The notes beneath the pieces are model-generated. The model was not told the DNA's origin. It ran no database searches and was given only the letters and a program-made list of their open reading frames with translations. From Escherichia coli (GTDB lineage: Bacteria; Pseudomonadota; Gammaproteobacteria; Enterobacterales; Enterobacteriaceae), in assembly GCF_046105845.1 (NCBI RefSeq), contig NZ_CP151004.1: a DNA stretch of 64,000 bases; one strand, 5' to 3'. Positions 16,804 to 60,071 of the stretch are shown here, piece after piece (positions within the stretch are counted from its first letter, which is position 1; every line of letters begins with the position of its first letter). The translations under genes were made by a program, and so were the position numbers.

Positions 16804-17040
16804 ATGATTTGTCCACGTTGTGCCGATGAACAGATTGAAGTGATGGCGAAATCGCCGGTAAAAGATGTCTGGACGGTCTACCAGTGCCAGCATTGCCTCT
16901 ATACCTGGCGCGATACCGAACCGCTACGCCGCACCAGCCGCGAACATTATCCCGAAGCGTTCCGCATGACGCAGAAAGATATTGATGACGCGCCGATGGT
17001 GCCGAGCATCCCGCCGCTGCTGGCGGCAGATAAGCGTTAA
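16804..17040 (+). CDS. Small zinc-ribbon protein resembling the D subunit of hydroxyarylic acid decarboxylases (EcdD/BsdD-like)
   Basis: 78-aa ORF MICPRCADEQIEV…VYQCQHCLYTW with two CxxC pairs; AAGGAG ribosome-binding site 7 nt upstream; lies right after the UbiD-like fragment. Confidence 0.6.
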   Translation: MICPRCADEQIEVMAKSPVKDVWTVYQCQHCLYTWRDTEPLRRTSREHYPEAFRMTQKDIDDAPMVPSIPPLLAADKR

Positions 17041-17080
17041 TAAAAAGTGCCGGGTAGTGGCTTTGCTTTACCCGGCCTCA

Positions 17081-17737
17081 TTACTTTATTTTATAAAATG
17101 ACAGCCGCCCGCTTTTCGGCGATCCGGTATCAATATAAATCTGGTTAGCGAACGTCTGAATGTTATCAAACATCATATGTCCAAATATAAAATAATCAGC
17201 GCCGTTTATTTGTTGTAACTCGCCATTAAGCGATTTCTGCACACGATCAACAGGCCAGAGTAGTTCTCTCTCCGCTATTTCTTTGTCAAAGAGATATTCA
17301 TTCCCCGGATAATCTGCATGTGCGATGACATATTTTATTATGTCGTTAGTGATTTCAATAATATGTGGAAGGCGATGAAATTTCAGCAACAGATTTATTG
17401 CTTCTTGTTGTTCCGTCTCATTTAATTCAAAGAACCAGTCGCCGCCGCTGGCAAGCCACATATTTCCATCGCCAGTTTCGAATGCATCAAGCGCCATCGC
17501 TTCATGGTTGCCTTTAACCGACGTAAACCAGGGTTGGTTTAGCAGGTGCAGCACGTTAAGACTCTCCGGCCCACGATCAATATTATCGCCGACAGAAATA
17601 AGTAAGTCGGTTTCAGGGCAAAAAGAGAGTTGATGTAAGCGGGATTGTAATAATTGATAGTCACCATGAATATCACCAACGGCCCATATATGGCGATAGT
17701 GATGGGTATTGATTTTTTGATAGCGTGTAGATGGCAT
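17081..17737 (-). CDS. pphB: Serine/threonine protein phosphatase 2
   Basis: 218-aa ORF with metallophosphatase motifs (GDIHGD, GDNIDRG, GNHE); adjacent to mutS. Confidence 0.9.
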   Translation of the reverse strand: MPSTRYQKINTHHYRHIWAVGDIHGDYQLLQSRLHQLSFCPETDLLISVGDNIDRGPESLNVLHLLNQPWFTSVKGNHEAMALDAFETGDGNMWLASGGDWFFELNETEQQEAINLLLKFHRLPHIIEITNDIIKYVIAHADYPGNEYLFDKEIAERELLWPVDRVQKSLNGELQQINGADYFIFGHMMFDNIQTFANQIYIDTGSPKSGRLSFYKIK

Positions 17738-17842
17738 GGTTTTACCCTGTAAAATAAGCTTTCCTATTATACAGGGTATTTTTATTTGATTCGTCAGTTG
17801 TCGTTAATATTCCCGATAGCAAAAGACTATCGGGAATTGTTA

Positions 17843-20404
17843 TTACACCAGACTCTTCAACCGATAAATCCACTCCAGCGCCTGACGCGGAGTCAGTGAA
17901 TCCGGGTCGAGGTTTTCCAGTGCCTCGACCGCAGGCGAAGTTTCTTCTGGTACGGGCAGCAAAGACATTTGCGTACCATCCACTTGCGTAGCGGCGGCGT
18001 TCGGCGAAATGCTTTCCAGCTCACGCAGTTTTTGCCGTGCGCGCTTAATCACCTCTTTTGGCACGCCCGCCAGAGCAGCAACCGCCAGGCCGTAGCTTTT
18101 GCTCGCCGCGCCATCCTGCACGCTATGCATAAAGGCAATGGTGTCGCCGTGCTCCAGTGCATCGAGATGCACGTTGGCGACGCCTTCCATTTTCTCCGGT
18201 AACTGGGTCAGCTCGAAATAGTGGGTAGCAAACAGCGTCAATGCCTTAATCTTATTCGCCAGATTTTCTGCGCACGCCCACGCCAGCGACAGACCATCGT
18301 AAGTGGACGTTCCACGCCCGATCTCATCCATTAACACCAGACTGTATTCGGTGGCGTTATGTAAAATATTGGCGGTTTCAGTCATCTCCACCATAAAGGT
18401 TGAGCGCCCGGAAGCCAGGTCATCTGCCGCGCCTACGCGGGTAAAGATGCGATCGATAGGTCCAATCTCGACTTTTTGTGCCGGTACATAGCTGCCGATG
18501 TAGGCCATCAGCGCAATCAGTGCGGTCTGGCGCATATAGGTACTTTTACCGCCCATATTCGGACCGGTAATGATCAACATGCGACGCTGCGGCGACAGGT
18601 TCAGCGGGTTGGCGATAAATGGCTCGTTCAGTACCTGTTCAACCACCGGATGGCGGCCTTCGGTGATGCGAATACCCGGTTTATCAATGAAGGTCGGGCA
18701 GGTGTAGTTCAGCGTATAGGCCCGTTCCGCCAGGTTCACCAGCACGTCGAGTTCCGCCAGCGCGCTCGCGCTCTGTTGCAACGCTTCCAGATGCGGCAAC
18801 AGCAGGTCGAACAACTCTTCATAAAGCTGTTTTTCCAGTGCTAGTGCTTTGCCTTTTGAAGTGAGAACTTTGTCTTCGTACTCTTTTAGCTCTGGAATAA
18901 TGTAGCGCTCGGCGTTTTTCAGCGTCTGGCGACGCATGTAATTGATGGGTGCCAGATGGCTTTGTCCACGGCTGATCTGAATGTAATAACCATGAACCGC
19001 GTTAAAGCCGACTTTCAGCGTGTCCAGGCCAGTACGTTCACGCTCGCGGACTTCCAGACGCTCCAGATAATCGGTCGCGCCGTCAGCCAGCGCGCGCCAC
19101 TCATCCAGCTCTTCGTTATAGCCCGATGCGATAACACCACCGTCGCGTACCAGCACTGGCGGTGTGTCGATGATTGCTCGCTCCAGCAGATCGCGCAGCT
19201 CGGCAAACTCGCCCATCTTCTCACGTAGCGCCTGTACCGGAGCGCTATCGACAGTTTCTAACTGCGCACGCAGCTCCGGCAGTTGCTGGAAAGCGTGACG
19301 CATACGGGCCAGATCGCGTGGGCGAGCAGTTCGTAAAGCCAGACGCGCCAGAATACGTTCCAGGTCGCCGACCTGACGCAGTACCGGCTGCAGCTCGGCG
19401 GTGAAATCCTGCAATGCGCCAATAGTTTGCTGGCGCTCAAGCAACACGCGGGTATCGCGCACTGGCATATGCAGCCAGCGTTTCAGCATACGACTACCCA
19501 TCGGCGTTACAGTGCAGTCGAGCACTGAAGCCAGCGTGTTTTCCGCACCGCCCGCCAGGTTCTGAGTAATTTCCAGGTTACGACGTGTCGCGGCATCCAT
19601 AATGATGCTGTCCTGCTCACGTTCCATGGTGATAGAACGAATATGTGGCAGGGTCGTACGTTGGGTATCTTTCGCATACTGCAACAGACAACCGGCAGCA
19701 CAAAGTCCGCGCGGCGCGTTCTCGACGCCAAAACCGACCAGATCGCGGGTGCCAAATTGCAGATTCAACTGCTGGCGCGCGGTGTCGATTTCAAACTCCC
19801 ACAGCGGGCGACGGCGCAGGCCGCGACGGCCTTCAATTAACGACATTTCAGCAAAATCTTCTGCATACAGCAGTTCCGCAGGATTAGTGCGTTGCAGTTC
19901 TGCCGCCATCGTTTCCCGGTCAGCCGGTTCGCTCAGGCGAAAACGACCGGAACTGATATCCAGCGTCGCGTAGCCGAAACCTTTGCTGTCCTGCCAGATA
20001 GCCGCCAGCAGGTTGTCCTGACGCTCCTGCAACAGGGCTTCATCGCTGATGGTGCCTGGCGTAACGATACGCACAACTTTGCGCTCAACCGGACCTTTGC
20101 TGGTCGCCGGATCGCCAATTTGTTCGCAGATGGCAACGGACTCGCCCTGATTCACCAGTTTGGCGAGGTAGTTTTCCACCGCATGGTAGGGAATCCCCGC
20201 CATCGGGATCGGCTCTCCCGCCGAAGCACCGCGTTTGGTCAGTGAAATATCCAGCAGTTGCGATGCGCGTTTTGCGTCGTCATAAAACAGTTCATAAAAA
20301 TCACCCATCCGGTAAAACAGCAGGATCTCGGGATGCTGGGCTTTCAGCTTGAGATACTGCTGCATCATGGGCGTATGGGCGTCGAAATTTTCTATTGCAC
20401 TCAT
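17843..20404 (-). CDS. mutS: DNA mismatch repair protein MutS
   Basis: 853-aa [43 protein letters not shown]… with Walker [10 protein letters not shown]. Confidence 0.97.
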
Positions 20405-34927: not shown

Positions 34928-35390
34928 CGTTTTACTCTGTGTTGGCAATAGCATGATGGGCGATGATGGCGCAGGCCCGCTACTGGCGGAAAAGTGCGCC
35001 GCCGCGCCGAAAGGTCACTGGGTGGTGATTGACGGCGGTAGTGCACCGGAAAACGACATTGTCGCTATTCGCGAACTGCGCCCTACGCGACTGCTGATTG
35101 TCGACGCCACTGATATGGGGCTAAACCCCGGCGAGATCCGCATCATCGACCCGGATGACATCGCCGAGATGTTTATGATGACTACCCATAACATGCCGTT
35201 GAACTACCTTATCGACCAGTTGAAAGAAGATATTGGCGAAGTGATTTTCCTCGGCATCCAGCCGGATATCGTCGGCTTTTACTACCCGATGACCCAGCCG
35301 ATTAAAGATGCGGTGGAAACCGTTTATCAACGACTGGAAGGCTGGGAAGGGAATGGCGGATTCGCGCAGTTAGCGGTGGAAGAAGAGTAG
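34920..35390 (+). CDS. hycI: Hydrogenase 3 maturation endopeptidase HycI
   Basis: 156-aa [28 protein letters not shown]…, recognised as HycI. Confidence 0.92.
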   Translation: MTDVLLCVGNSMMGDDGAGPLLAEKCAAAPKGHWVVIDGGSAPENDIVAIRELRPTRLLIVDATDMGLNPGEIRIIDPDDIAEMFMMTTHNMPLNYLIDQLKEDIGEVIFLGIQPDIVGFYYPMTQPIKDAVETVYQRLEGWEGNGGFAQLAVEEE

Positions 35391-35446
35391 TTCGTAGACA
35401 AACATGTTCACGTTTTGGAATTTGGACGTGCAATTGTGACGTGTAG

Positions 35447-35475
35447 ACGGGTGTTTACATATTGTGAACACCCGT
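35447..35475. promoter_or_regulatory. Inverted repeat upstream of the toxin gene (candidate antitoxin operator, or hycI terminator hairpin)
   Basis: ACGGGTGTT-N11-AACACCCGT (9-bp arms) 80-110 nt upstream of the higB-like ATG; further TGTGAACA/TGTTCAC-like copies at about 35403..35412; no T-run follows. Confidence 0.3.
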
Positions 35476-35556
35476 GTGATCAACTACTATAGAAAAATAA
35501 ATCCGAAGGAATGGTAGTCCAGGTTTAGTCATTCAGGCGCTAATAAGGAAGTTAAA

Positions 35557-35868
35557 ATGCACATCATTTCTAAAGCGCCATTTGAAGAGTGTGCGCGCAA
35601 ATATCCTAACGACGCTCTGGCTCTACACTCATTGTATCGGGTTATTAAGGAAACGGATTTTTCTACACCAGAAGAAATGCGAACGGCGTTTCCCAACCTC
35701 GACAATTTTAGATATCGCAACAAATGGTACGTTCTGGATGTCGGCGGGAACAATCTTAGGGTTATTGCCTACATAAACTTTGTTAATAAGCGGTTCTTTG
35801 TGAAGCACATAACGAATCACGCAGAGTATGACAAACTGACACGTTACTACAGAGAGAACAAAGAATGA
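35557..35868 (+). CDS. HigB-family (RelE/ParE superfamily) type II toxin, mRNA interferase
   Basis: 103-aa ORF MHIISKAPFEECARKYPNDALALHSLYRVIKETDFSTPEEMRTAFPNLDNFRYRNKWYVLDVGGNNLRVIAYINF…HAEYD…; shares the MH.I…KYP…FP.LDNF.Y…YV..VGGN.LRV…H.EYD pattern with E. coli HigB but is clearly a different sequence; AAGGAAG ribosome-binding site. Confidence 0.8.
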   Translation: MHIISKAPFEECARKYPNDALALHSLYRVIKETDFSTPEEMRTAFPNLDNFRYRNKWYVLDVGGNNLRVIAYINFVNKRFFVKHITNHAEYDKLTRYYRENKE

Positions 35869-36284
35869 CTGCTAATGCTGCACGCGCTGTTAAAGCAACA
35901 AGAGAACTGGTCAATGCAGTCCCCTTTCTGGGAGGTAGTGACTCAGAAGATGATTATCGTGAAGCACTGGAACTGGTCGAATATTTGATTGAAGAAGATG
36001 ACACCAATCCACTTATCGACTTTCTGGCGAGCCGCATTGCAGAATATGAAAACAACAACGAAAAGTTTGCCGAGTTCGACAAAGCCGTTGCAGCAATGCC
36101 GGTTGGCGTGGCGTTACTTCGTACGCTGATTGATCAACATAATCTGACCTATGCGGATTTGAAGAACGAAATCGGCTCTAAATCCCTGGTCAGTCAGATT
36201 TTGTCTGGACAACGATCCCTGACGATATCCCATATTAAGGCACTTTCAGCCCGATTTGGCGTTAAGCCGGAATGGTTTCTTTGA
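35865..36284 (+). CDS. HigA-family antitoxin (C-terminal XRE helix-turn-helix)
   Basis: 139-aa ORF overlapping the toxin stop by 4 nt (ATGA); C-terminal …IGSKSLVSQILSGQRSLTISHIKALSARFGVKPEWFL is HigA-like. Confidence 0.8.
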   Translation: MTANAARAVKATRELVNAVPFLGGSDSEDDYREALELVEYLIEEDDTNPLIDFLASRIAEYENNNEKFAEFDKAVAAMPVGVALLRTLIDQHNLTYADLKNEIGSKSLVSQILSGQRSLTISHIKALSARFGVKPEWFL

Positions 36285-36310
36285 TTTTGACTGATGCCAA
36301 ACGCCAGATT

Positions 36311-36335
36311 GCCCGATGCGCAACGCTTATCGGGC
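36311..36335. repeat. REP-like palindromic element
   Basis: GCCCGATGCGCAACGCTTATCGGGC (7-bp arms GCCCGAT/ATCGGGC) between the higA-like stop and the convergent ascB stop. Confidence 0.4.
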
Positions 36336-36362
36336 TTTCCTGGTTAGTGCGACAGTAGTTAC

Positions 36363-39253
<2,891 letters not shown>

Positions 39254-56705: not shown

Positions 56706-59336
56706 ATGAGCAAGAGCACCGCTGAGATCCGTCAGGCGTTTCTCGACTTTTTCCATAGTAAGGGACATCAGGTAGTTGCCAGCAGCTCCCTGGTACCCCA
56801 TAACGACCCAACTTTGTTGTTTACCAACGCCGGGATGAACCAGTTCAAGGATGTGTTCCTTGGGCTCGACAAGCGTAATTATTCCCGCGCTACCACTTCC
56901 CAACGCTGCGTGCGTGCGGGTGGTAAACACAACGACCTGGAAAACGTCGGTTACACCGCGCGTCACCATACCTTCTTCGAAATGCTGGGCAACTTCAGCT
57001 TCGGCGACTATTTCAAACACGATGCCATTCAGTTTGCATGGGAACTGCTGACCAGTGAAAAATGGTTTGCCCTGCCGAAAGAGCGTCTGTGGGTTACCGT
57101 CTATGAAAGCGACGACGAAGCCTACGAAATCTGGGAAAAAGAAGTAGGGATCCCGCGCGAACGTATTATTCGCATCGGCGATAACAAAGGTGCGCCATAC
57201 GCATCTGACAACTTCTGGCAGATGGGTGACACTGGTCCGTGCGGCCCGTGCACCGAAATCTTCTACGATCACGGCGACCACATTTGGGGTGGCCCTCCGG
57301 GAAGCCCGGAAGAAGACGGCGATCGCTACATTGAGATCTGGAACATCGTCTTCATGCAGTTCAACCGCCAGGCAGATGGCACGATGGAACCGCTGCCGAA
57401 GCCGTCTGTAGATACCGGTATGGGTCTGGAGCGTATTGCTGCGGTGCTGCAACACGTTAACTCTAACTATGACATCGACCTGTTCCGCACGCTGATCCAG
57501 GCGGTAGCGAAAGTCACTGGCGCGACCGATCTGAGCAATAAATCGCTGCGCGTAATCGCTGACCACATTCGTTCTTGTGCGTTCCTGATCGCGGATGGCG
57601 TAATGCCGTCCAACGAAAACCGTGGTTATGTACTGCGTCGTATCATTCGTCGCGCAGTGCGTCACGGTAATATGCTCGGCGCGAAAGAAACCTTCTTCTA
57701 CAAACTGGTTGGTCCGCTGATCGACGTTATGGGCTCTGCGGGCGAAGACCTGAAACGCCAGCAGGCGCAGGTTGAGCAGGTGCTGAAGACTGAAGAAGAG
57801 CAGTTTGCCCGTACTCTGGAGCGCGGTCTGGCGCTGCTGGACGAAGAGCTGGCAAAACTTTCTGGTGATACGCTGGATGGTGAAACGGCTTTCCGTCTGT
57901 ACGACACCTATGGCTTCCCGGTTGACCTGACGGCTGATGTTTGTCGTGAGCGCAACATCAAAGTTGACGAAGCTGGATTTGAAGCAGCAATGGAAGAGCA
58001 GCGTCGTCGTGCGCGCGAAGCCAGCGGCTTTGGTGCCGATTACAACGCAATGATCCGTGTTGACAGTGCATCTGAATTTAAAGGCTATGACCATCTGGAA
58101 CTGAACGGCAAAGTGACCGCGCTGTTTGTTGATGGTAAAGCGGTTGATGCCATCAATGCAGGCCAGGAAGCTGTGGTCGTGCTGGATCAAACGCCATTCT
58201 ATGCTGAATCCGGCGGTCAGGTTGGTGATAAAGGCGAACTGAAAGGCGCTAACTTCTCCTTTGCGGTGGAAGATACGCAGAAATACGGCCAGGCGATTGG
58301 TCACATCGGTAAACTTGCTGCGGGTTCTCTGAAAGTGGGCGACGCGGTGCAGGCTGATGTTGATGAAGCTCGTCGCGCCCGTATTCGTCTGAATCACTCC
58401 GCAACGCACCTGATGCACGCGGCGCTGCGCCAGGTTCTGGGTACTCATGTATCGCAGAAAGGTTCACTGGTTAACGACAAAGTGCTGCGCTTCGACTTCT
58501 CACACAACGAAGCGATGAAACCAGAAGAGATTCGTGCGGTCGAAGACCTGGTGAACGCACAGATTCGCCGTAACTTGCCGATTGAAACCAACATCATGGA
58601 TCTCGAAGCGGCGAAAGCGAAAGGTGCGATGGCGCTGTTCGGCGAGAAGTATGATGAGCGCGTACGCGTGCTGAGCATGGGCGATTTCTCCACCGAGCTG
58701 TGTGGCGGTACTCACGCCAGCCGCACTGGTGATATTGGTCTGTTCCGCATCATCTCTGAATCGGGTACTGCTGCAGGCGTTCGTCGTATCGAAGCGGTAA
58801 CCGGAGAAGGCGCTATCGCCACCGTTCATGCAGACAGCGATCGCTTAAACGAAGTCGCGCATCTGCTGAAAGGCGATAGCAATAATCTGGCTGATAAAGT
58901 GCGCTCAGTACTGGAACGTACGCGTCAGCTGGAAAAAGAGTTACAACAGCTTAAAGAACAAGCTGCCGCACAGGAGAGCGCAAATCTTTCCAGTAAGGCA
59001 ATTGATGTTAATGGTGTTAAGCTGTTGGTTAGCGAGCTTAGCGGTGTTGAGCCGAAAATGTTGCGTACCATGGTTGACGATTTAAAAAATCAGCTGGGGT
59101 CGACAATTATCGTGCTGGCAACGGTAGTCGAAGGTAAGGTTTCTCTGATTGCAGGCGTATCTAAGGACGTCACAGATCGTGTGAAAGCAGGGGAACTGAT
59201 TGGTATGGTCGCTCAGCAGGTGGGCGGCAAGGGTGGTGGACGTCCTGACATGGCGCAAGCCGGTGGTACGGATGCTGCGGCCTTACCTGCAGCGTTAGCC
59301 AGTGTGAAAGGCTGGGTCAGCGCGAAATTGCAATAA
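56706..59336 (+). CDS. alaS: Alanine--tRNA ligase
   Basis: 876-aa [52 protein letters not shown]…. Confidence 0.98.
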
Positions 59337-59570
59337 TATAAGCGTCAGGCAATGCCGTGGACTCGCTTCACGGCATTCGCATTAACGCTATCGACAACGA
59401 TAAAGTCAGGTTGAAGTTGTGTATATCGGCTAAACTTAGGTTTAACAGAATGTAATGCCATGACTGCTTACATGTAATGTGTTTGTCATTGCTTACTTTT
59501 TGGCGTTATATGATGGATAATGCCGGGATACAGAGAGACCCGACTCTTTTAATCTTTCAAGGAGCAAAGA

Positions 59571-59756
59571 ATGCTGATTCTGACTCGTCGAGTTGGTGAG
59601 ACCCTCATGATTGGGGATGAGGTCACCGTGACAGTTTTAGGGGTAAAGGGCAACCAGGTACGTATTGGCGTAAATGCCCCGAAGGAAGTTTCTGTTCACC
59701 GTGAAGAGATCTACCAGCGTATCCAGGCTGAAAAATCCCAGCAGTCCAGTTACTAA
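59571..59756 (+). CDS. csrA: Carbon storage regulator CsrA
   Basis: 61-aa [64 protein letters not shown]. Confidence 0.98.
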
Positions 59757-60071
59757 TCTTTCCGCGTCTCATCTTTATCGGTGAGACGCACCCTCAAAAT
59801 TTCTTCTTCACTCCATTGTCTTTTCGCTTTACTCCCGTTCATTCAACTTAAGTCTCCATTTTTTTGCATTACTGCTATCTGACAGACCTCCGTTTTTCTG
59901 TTGATAAAACACTCTTTTTGACGTTTTTACAGACTAATTGAGCGTGAAGTGTGCAAACGATAAAAGTGTGGGAAAAATTGTTTGACTTATAAGTCTCAGA
60001 AAGTAATATGTGCGCCACGCAGCGACGATGAGCGATAAACAAGTTCTTCGAAGCACTCGTAAGAGGCGTGT

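Follow-up and report, generated by a model that had tools for sequence, protein, structure and literature searches.

In Escherichia coli contig NZ_CP151004.1, two genes encoding a predicted toxin–antitoxin pair fill the spacer between hycI and ascB. The DNA examined is a 64-kb stretch of that contig (the window), and positions count from its start. The spacer (35391-36362) is 972 nt long and carries a toxin gene of 103 amino acids (aa) followed by an antitoxin gene of 139 aa, the two open reading frames (ORFs) sharing 4 nt (ATGA) at 35865-35868 (Table 1). This toxin-first layout, described in an initial annotation of the window, was confirmed by ORF listing and by the sequence itself. The annotation also gave no genes between hycI and ascB in K-12, and in K-12 MG1655 the spacer indeed measures 158 nt and has no annotated gene. 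After the antitoxin, 78 nt of spacer remain before the convergent ascB. By homology, the pair is an intact module of the HigB(PF09907)/HigA type, an uncharacterised member of a known family.

Alignment with empty-site and orphan-antitoxin loci puts the module borders at the hycI stop on the left and immediately 5' of CTGATGCC (36291) on the right. The low-GC segment between them is specific to module-carrying genomes and missing from K-12-type genomes. At 35391-36292 the GC content is 0.432, compared with 0.563 and 0.523 in the left and right 5-kb flanks, a value that puts the segment among the lowest 0.24% of windows of its size (902 nt) in the 64 kb and bears out the earlier impression that this DNA is more AT-rich than its surroundings. 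GC content at third codon positions is 0.49 for the toxin, 0.42 for the antitoxin and 0.64 for hycI.

Table 1 Features of the hycI–ascB spacer and orthologous orphan-antitoxin loci
Feature	Position	Strand	Basis
hycI, upstream of the pair	end 35390		ORF listing and sequence
Low-GC segment (promoter region, toxin, antitoxin, short tail)	35391-36290	.	Alignment with empty-site and orphan-antitoxin loci
29-nt palindrome, 13-nt arms 92% complementary	35447-35475	+	Inverted-repeat search
17-nt core GTTTACATATTGTGAAC, predicted HigA operator, distal site O1	35453-35469	+	Motif conservation
Inferred sigma-70 promoter: -35 TTGTGA (35462-35467), 17-nt spacer, -10 TACTAT (35485-35490)	35462-35490	+	Geometry of relatives
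Shine-Dalgarno AAGGAAG, 5 nt 5' of the toxin ATG	35545-35551	+	Sequence reading
Toxin gene, 103 aa, HigB family (PF09907), SehA-like branch	35557-35868	+	ORF listing, Pfam, alignments
Antitoxin gene, 139 aa, HigA type	35865-36284	+	ORF listing, HTH_3, alignments
Terminator-like hairpin (36255-36271) and T-rich tail, overlapping the last antitoxin codons and stop	36255-36289	+	Consensus scan only
REP-like palindromic element, core GCCCGAT...ATCGGGC (36311-36335)	36292-36345	.	Folding and alignment
ascB stop codon	36363-36365	-	ORF listing and sequence
Orphan antitoxin, orthologous to 35865-36284	L003:1224-1643
Orphan antitoxin, orthologous to 35865-36284	L008:1660-2079
Orphan antitoxin, orthologous to 35865-36284	L010:3224-3643
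Orphan antitoxin, orthologous to 35865-36284	L013:1530-1949

The toxin scores 80.7 bits in the Pfam family HigB_toxin (PF09907), for which the cut-off is 27 (E = 9e-23, covering positions 4-73 of the 74 in the profile), and aligns over its full length with K-12 HigB (5IFG_A; E = 2e-21, 38% identity over 99 aa). The antitoxin aligns with K-12 HigA (5IFG_B) at 46% identity over 134 of its 139 residues (E = 2.5e-35) and has an HTH_3 match at residues 85-138 (E = 2e-9), giving the domain order of an N-terminal toxin-binding and dimerisation domain followed by a C-terminal Xre-type helix-turn-helix (HTH). The exact toxin protein is present on 567 public contigs under the name HigB family toxin, and the exact antitoxin is named antitoxin HigA or helix-turn-helix domain-containing protein. 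The earlier assignment to the HigB/HigA family, as a known family and not a new system, therefore stands on the Pfam match, the alignments with the K-12 HigB–HigA chains and the existing database names. NCBIfam holds no specific model for either protein, with one sub-threshold chance match, and a literature search returned nothing for hycI and ascB together with toxin–antitoxin, or for the RefSeq proteins WP_000547564 and WP_000126294.

The pair had also been described as related to, but distinct from, the HigBA of E. coli, which the identities to K-12 HigB and HigA support, with one correction: by sequence identity, the closest characterised relative is SehAB of Salmonella (57% to SehA, 45% to SehB). 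The toxin is 77% identical to homologues on plasmids. In a gap-free alignment, its residues Y53, D61, H88, Y91, K93, T95, Y97 and Y98 match all eight positions at which alanine substitution abolishes SehA toxicity (PMC12817084), whereas K-12 HigB has N61, F93, V97 and H98. The pair is best described as SehAB-like and not K-12-HigBA-like.

These relatives suggest two different targets for the toxin. HigB of K-12 is toxic and in vivo cuts mRNA only when it is translated; HigA both neutralises this toxin and represses the operon (PMC2814082). SehA slows growth; its antitoxin SehB neutralises it and also binds the promoter (PMC7160566, PMC12817084). SehA is reported to lack endoribonuclease activity and instead to inhibit RNase III, to block rRNA maturation and to be non-toxic without RNase III; 5'-end mapping in vivo found no cleavage in coding regions (PMC12817084). 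We put at about even the chances that the window toxin acts like SehA, which means that it would bind RNase III and block the maturation of rRNA, and lean to this mode because identity is 57% to SehA and 38% to K-12 HigB and the eight toxicity residues are shared.

Slightly less probable is a ribosome-dependent mRNA interferase like K-12 HigB, which would move into the A site of the ribosome and cleave mRNAs inside codons as they are translated. The two toxins share a Pfam family and a full-length alignment, PF09907 toxins are classed as ribosome-dependent mRNases (PMC11980606, Table 1), and Y53, K56, R68, H88, Y91 and R99, which are among the residues invariant across all four aligned toxins including K-12 HigB and SehA, are all present. 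However, the window toxin is far closer to SehA, and it shares with SehA the specific alpha-4 residues K93, Y97 and Y98, plus D61, whereas SehA itself did not cleave coding regions in vivo and depended on RNase III for its toxicity.

Upstream of the toxin, the 17-nt palindromic core is probably the operator for HigA. It is unique in the window, where 0.05 matches are expected by chance, and two different E. coli upstream regions align poorly except for 19 identical nt over it. The motif GTT(T/C)ACA-N3-TGT(A/G)AAC occurs 5' of the toxin in 24 of the 24 relatives examined, most often as two copies, at -73 and -35, with an extended -10 between them. Plasmid relatives share the motif, and their promoters carry GTTCACATATTGTAAAC. 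A common 7-3-7 frame, GTTnnCA-N3-TGnnAAC, unites the palindromes of the window, of K-12 higBA (GTTGCCA-ATC-TGGCAAC) and of Salmonella sehAB (GTTTTCA-ACT-TGAAAAC), but the central bases differ, and a comparison of K-12 HigA with the window antitoxin shows different recognition-helix regions (SQILSGQRS vs SRVLSGKRK). The differences from K-12 in both operator and recognition helix fit paralogues that are insulated from one another.

Only the distal operator is retained in the window, at -104; the proximal position is degenerate, and a search allowing up to 2 mismatches found no second operator in the window. Almost every relative has the proximal site at -35, but both chromosomal arrangements of E. 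coli have only a degenerate version of it (window 35470-35556 vs L005/L006:2930-3000), and the leader is approximately 30-35 nt longer than in relatives. Together, the degenerate site and the longer leader suggest altered autoregulation.

A consensus promoter scan of the spacer found no + strand promoter, and the promoter proposed here therefore rests on the geometry of relatives. In the plasmid relatives TTGTAA is followed, after 17 nt, by an extended -10 TGCTATAAT; the window has the same geometry, with 8 of 12 consensus matches, which is under the scanner threshold, and with its -35 inside the right operator half. The promoter at this position is thus putative. There is no terminator between hycI and the pair, so read-through from hyc is possible.

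Downstream, the predicted hairpin at the end of the antitoxin gene may be the terminator of the module itself. It lies upstream of a second hairpin, a repetitive extragenic palindromic (REP)-like element with a folding energy of -28.1 kcal/mol (z = -3.2). Although the REP-like hairpin following the antitoxin is present as the initial annotation stated, it does not serve as evidence of transfer, given that the same element is found in empty-site genomes: it aligns with the REP/BIME (bacterial interspersed mosaic element) at the same position in K-12-type genomes, and genomes without the pair match only positions 900-972 of the spacer query, which is the REP region. The REP belongs to the ancestral spacer and lies outside the module, whose right border it marks. 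An Rfam search at E <= 1 gave no match in 35200-36600, as expected for a DNA repeat.

Profile matches also raise a role in abortive-infection phage defence related to PD-lambda-2 or to HigBAC-type modules, which we regard as improbable. The toxin matches the PADLOC profile PD-Lambda-2_A (E = 2e-15) and the antitoxin matches PD-Lambda-2_B in its N-terminal part (E = 2e-14), and HigB-like toxins act both in PD-lambda-2 (PMC9519451) and in higBAC of E. coli C496 (PMC11980606). However, the 139-aa antitoxin covers only positions 9-115 of the 402-position B profile, whereas the B protein of PD-lambda-2 has approximately 400 aa and a peptidase, and it is B and not the HigB-like A that forms the toxic part of that system (PMC9519451). 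PD-lambda-2 needs three genes, and no third ORF precedes ascB. With its short B protein and two genes, the pair is excluded from PD-lambda-2 on gene content, and with no SecB-like chaperone gene after the antitoxin it is likewise excluded from the toxin–antitoxin–chaperone (HigBAC) modules. The neighbourhood, moreover, is metabolic (hyc and asc) and not a defence island.

The nearest relatives, at about 77-79% aa identity, are found on Enterobacterales plasmids, on P1-like phage-plasmids and scattered in other genera. By tblastn, the toxin is present on 1,040 plasmid records, 653 of them from Klebsiella, with best matches at approximately 77% identity; 63 Escherichia plasmid records carry homologues. 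P1-like elements with the toxin include an Enterobacter plasmid with tail and baseplate genes and the Cronobacter phage JK004. A scan of one genome per species recovered relatives 56-79% identical in Leclercia, Mangrovibacter, Pantoea, Mixta, Kluyvera, Citrobacter, Photorhabdus and Rahnella and in no other Escherichia species, the latter being a weak negative for a scan that used exact peptide words. The architecture is stable, with a 312-nt and a 420-nt gene joined by an ATGA overlap in 22 of 24 relatives.

In two relatives, Leclercia adecarboxylata NCTC13032 (L016) and Kluyvera genomosp. 3 (L023), the toxin ORF and both operators are present, and a simple scan found no antitoxin ORF of >90 aa starting near the toxin stop; this could reflect a disrupted antitoxin or an unusual start codon. 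Two records in the collections are chromosomal, as are the matches on them: NZ_CP134663.1, in the plasmid collection, is a 4.9-Mb E. coli chromosome, and AFYI01000005.1, in the phage collection, is a chromosomal contig of Salmonella Infantis.

Among 5,426 complete E. coli genomes, 2,508 (46%) carry the antitoxin gene, always as one chromosomal copy, and 1,091 (20%) carry the full toxin gene and hence the pair. In another 581 genomes, all that is left of the toxin gene is its 33-nt 3' end, and the upstream region is of the window type in 343. By subtraction, approximately 1,417 genomes (26%) have the antitoxin without the toxin and approximately 2,900 have no antitoxin gene. The pair is thus accessory and not part of the conserved core.

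Several arrangements occur at this site. Besides hycI–pair–ascB, as in the window, there is a form in which a gene for a 253-aa exported hypothetical protein lies between hycI and the pair, followed by ascB (L002; also O26 and O111 strains). Two forms with an orphan antitoxin have different deletion junctions (L003 and L008), other forms lack asc (L010 and L013), and the empty form is of the K-12 type (L001 and L012). The toxin gene has been deleted at no fewer than two different, independent junctions.

The 253-aa gene (L002:1016-1777 in O26/O111-type genomes), which the window lacks, encodes a signal-peptide-like N terminus, and Pfam gave no match in the protein. In some lineages, which lack the asc operon, a hypothetical gene of 142-145 aa lies on the opposite strand between the antitoxin and hydN (L010:3735-4172, L013:2228-2479, L034:3512-3940). 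The K-12-type higBA, which lies outside the window (L004:429-1156), also varies among strains: 2,825 of the 5,426 genomes have it complete, and many others match only positions 238-728 of the query, which corresponds to a truncated toxin and an intact antitoxin.

The antitoxin is under strong purifying selection. The six higA alleles compared, of which four come from orphan loci, vary at 21 sites, every one of them synonymous (P ~7e-14 given 24% synonymous sites), and the protein is identical in all six; this protein, WP_000126294.1, stays the same throughout the compared loci although their genes are separated by as many as 16 synonymous changes. A single copy with a frameshift was encountered. 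The orphan loci L003 and L013 differ by 16 synonymous and 0 nonsynonymous changes in higA and encode the same remnant ORF, and therefore share a common deletion junction. Barring recombination, this suggests that constraint on the antitoxin continued after the toxin was lost. In the toxin, the two main alleles (window and state B) differ by 3 nonsynonymous and 2 synonymous changes, none at the eight critical positions, and these residues are unchanged in the common alleles.

These patterns also bear on an alternative reading, in which the antitoxin is the part kept by selection, as a regulator or as an anti-addiction factor, and the toxin is attenuated or being lost. In the anti-addiction role HigA would act against homologues arriving on plasmids and phage-plasmids, by silencing or neutralising them, a role compatible with a functional module in the window. 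Orphans outnumber pairs, the deletion junctions differ, the protein is unchanged across the six loci, and two deeply diverged orphan loci share a junction, all of which fits such retention. Potential opponents exist on the 63 Escherichia plasmid records and on P1-like phage-plasmids: overall, the antitoxin is 78% identical to the plasmid homologues, its C-terminal HTH domain is 90-93% identical with an identical recognition-helix stretch, and the plasmid operators fit the motif. However, the N-terminal toxin-binding domain is only 62-68% identical to that of the plasmid antitoxins, which makes cross-neutralisation uncertain, and the toxin ORF in the window is intact, has all critical residues and belongs to a common allele (567 contigs). 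Some of the synonymous divergence may also predate toxin loss or reflect recombination. On balance, we consider this alternative possible, though rather unlikely.

With the GC content of 0.43 and the plasmid and phage-plasmid relatives, a foreign origin of the module is plausible, and to this extent the horizontal acquisition suggested in the initial annotation holds. It does not extend to a recent insertion. Pairwise synonymous differences in higA track those in hycI across six loci, and an assembly whose copy of the protein NCBI labels Escherichia albertii carries hycI, a 251-aa gene, higB, higA and hydN, with 95.5-96.9% identity to the window in higBA and 93.8-97.1% in the hyc genes. The distribution, the co-divergence with hycI and the same site in a divergent Escherichia assembly therefore place the acquisition before these lineages split and rule out a recent insertion in this strain.

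The empty site of K-12 is itself partly derived: short stretches of the 253-aa gene survive in its spacer, 16 nt matching the start and 26 nt matching the end, followed by the REP/BIME, so the empty state is at least partly a deletion scar. Probably, the form with the 253-aa gene is ancestral and that of the window a derived minority. Empty-site lineages arose either by precise deletion of the pair or by descent from a pre-insertion allele. A candidate direct repeat, CTGA (4-5 nt), lies at the module ends in state B; at this length it fits a target duplication and deletion microhomology alike.

Other 1-kb bins of low GC in the window are 1-2000 (0.43-0.47), 17001-18000 (0.44) and 59001-60000 (0.46), against a window mean of 0.53, and may be further accessory segments.

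Taken as a whole, the evidence is best explained by an intact, self-regulated type II toxin–antitoxin operon of the HigB(PF09907)/HigA family on the SehAB branch, to which we assign a probability of roughly 0.8. Its homology and anatomy, the conservation of the operator, the distribution in the population and the selection on the antitoxin are shown by the data; toxicity, neutralisation, DNA binding, the promoter and the target are what we infer for it. In this operon, a single transcript would start from a weak promoter whose -35 lies within the 17-nt palindrome. The toxin would be encoded first and translation of the antitoxin coupled to it through the ATGA overlap. An antitoxin dimer would bind the palindrome through its C-terminal HTH and repress the operon, while its N-terminal domain would bind and neutralise the toxin. 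Depletion of the antitoxin would then free the toxin, lowering translation capacity and slowing growth. Historically, the module would have entered the Escherichia chromosome long ago from a plasmid or phage-plasmid pool, beside the 253-aa gene downstream of hycI, and later have been lost, or reduced to the orphan antitoxin, in most lineages; the window would represent a minority arrangement, with no 253-aa gene and with the distal operator only.

Several points weigh against this account. The RNase III mechanism comes from one laboratory and from a protein 57% identical, and the family-invariant residues are present in the mRNA-cleaving K-12 HigB as well, so that sequence alone cannot separate the two modes. 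The ratio of 3 nonsynonymous to 2 synonymous differences is weak evidence of constraint on the toxin. With at least two deletions, and orphans (approximately 1,417) in excess of pairs (1,091), the toxin may be dispensable or costly. Finally, the degenerate proximal operator and the weak proposed -10 may mean that regulation is different, or that expression depends on read-through from hyc.

The pair is standard in family, architecture and accessory status, and nothing about it is surprising in kind. Its value is as a clear-cut case in nature of an antitoxin kept where its toxin was lost, which could be used to test the anti-addiction idea against plasmid and phage-plasmid homologues. Should the window toxin prove to work as SehA does, E. 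coli would lend itself to asking whether RNase III inhibition is general for the branch and which of the four branch-specific residues switch the HigB fold from mRNA cleavage to RNase III binding. A bolder joint reading, which we hold only tentatively and think less likely to be right than wrong, is that the toxin and the 77% clade on plasmids and phage-plasmids are RNase III inhibitors and that the orphan antitoxin is a selected chromosomal immunity against these mobile homologues. Such immunity could act by repression of the mobile promoters through the common operator, by toxin neutralisation or by both. With a SehA-like target throughout the clade, inhibiting RNase III would be a toxin activity that is both mobile and widespread in Enterobacterales.

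Compared with named systems, the most distant is HigB/HigA of Proteus vulgaris Rts1, which has in common with the window pair the name, the toxin-first order and the RelE superfamily fold. Its toxin belongs to another Pfam family, PF05015 (PMC11980606), and neither Rts1 protein matched the window proteins in a solved-structure search at E <= 0.01. PD-lambda-2 resembles the pair in its HigB-like first protein and in the HigA-like N-terminal and HTH region of its second, but differs in having three genes, a toxic B with a C-terminal peptidase and a third gene that is required for defence (PMC9519451), none of which is found in the window.

The pairs on plasmids and P1-like phage-plasmids (for example WP_011251285/WP_011251286 on Klebsiella IncFIB/IncHI1B plasmids, and JK004) are the closest overall, with both proteins 77-78% identical, and agree with the window pair in gene length (312 and 420 nt), gene overlap, operator consensus and promoter geometry; for these, too, we found no characterisation. 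They have two operators, at -73 and -35, around an extended -10, whereas the window has the distal site only, at -104, and a longer leader, and they reside on mobile replicons whereas the window copy is fixed at one chromosomal site.

K-12 HigB/HigA (YgjN/YgjM; PDB 5IFG) agrees with the window pair in the Pfam toxin family, gene order, antitoxin domain order and protein sizes (104 and 138 aa), and its operon is autoregulated through palindromes in the same frame (PMC2814082). It differs in protein identity (38% for the toxin, 46% for the antitoxin), in its operator (GTTGCCA-N3-TGGCAAC), in its locus (fadH–rlmG) and in 4 of the 8 SehA-critical positions, and is a separate paralogue.

Salmonella enterica SehA/SehB (STM4031/STM4030.S) offers the best match among characterised systems. 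SehA is a PF09907 toxin of 103 aa, identical at the eight toxicity residues, and sehAB has the same toxin-first order with ATGA overlap, the same antitoxin organisation of N-terminal dimerisation and toxin-binding domain with C-terminal HTH, and an operator in the 7-3-7 frame GTTnnCA-N3-TGnnAAC. SehB is longer (148 aa vs 139 aa) and 45% identical, the operator reads GTTTTCA-N3-TGAAAAC and is present twice as opposed to once in the window, and the chromosomal site is different, near fdhE. RNase III inhibition has been reported for SehA (PMC12817084), and in the window toxin the same activity is putative only. For annotation, the pair should hence not be equated with K-12 HigBA but treated as a separate paralogue on the SehAB branch, with an operator sequence of its own.

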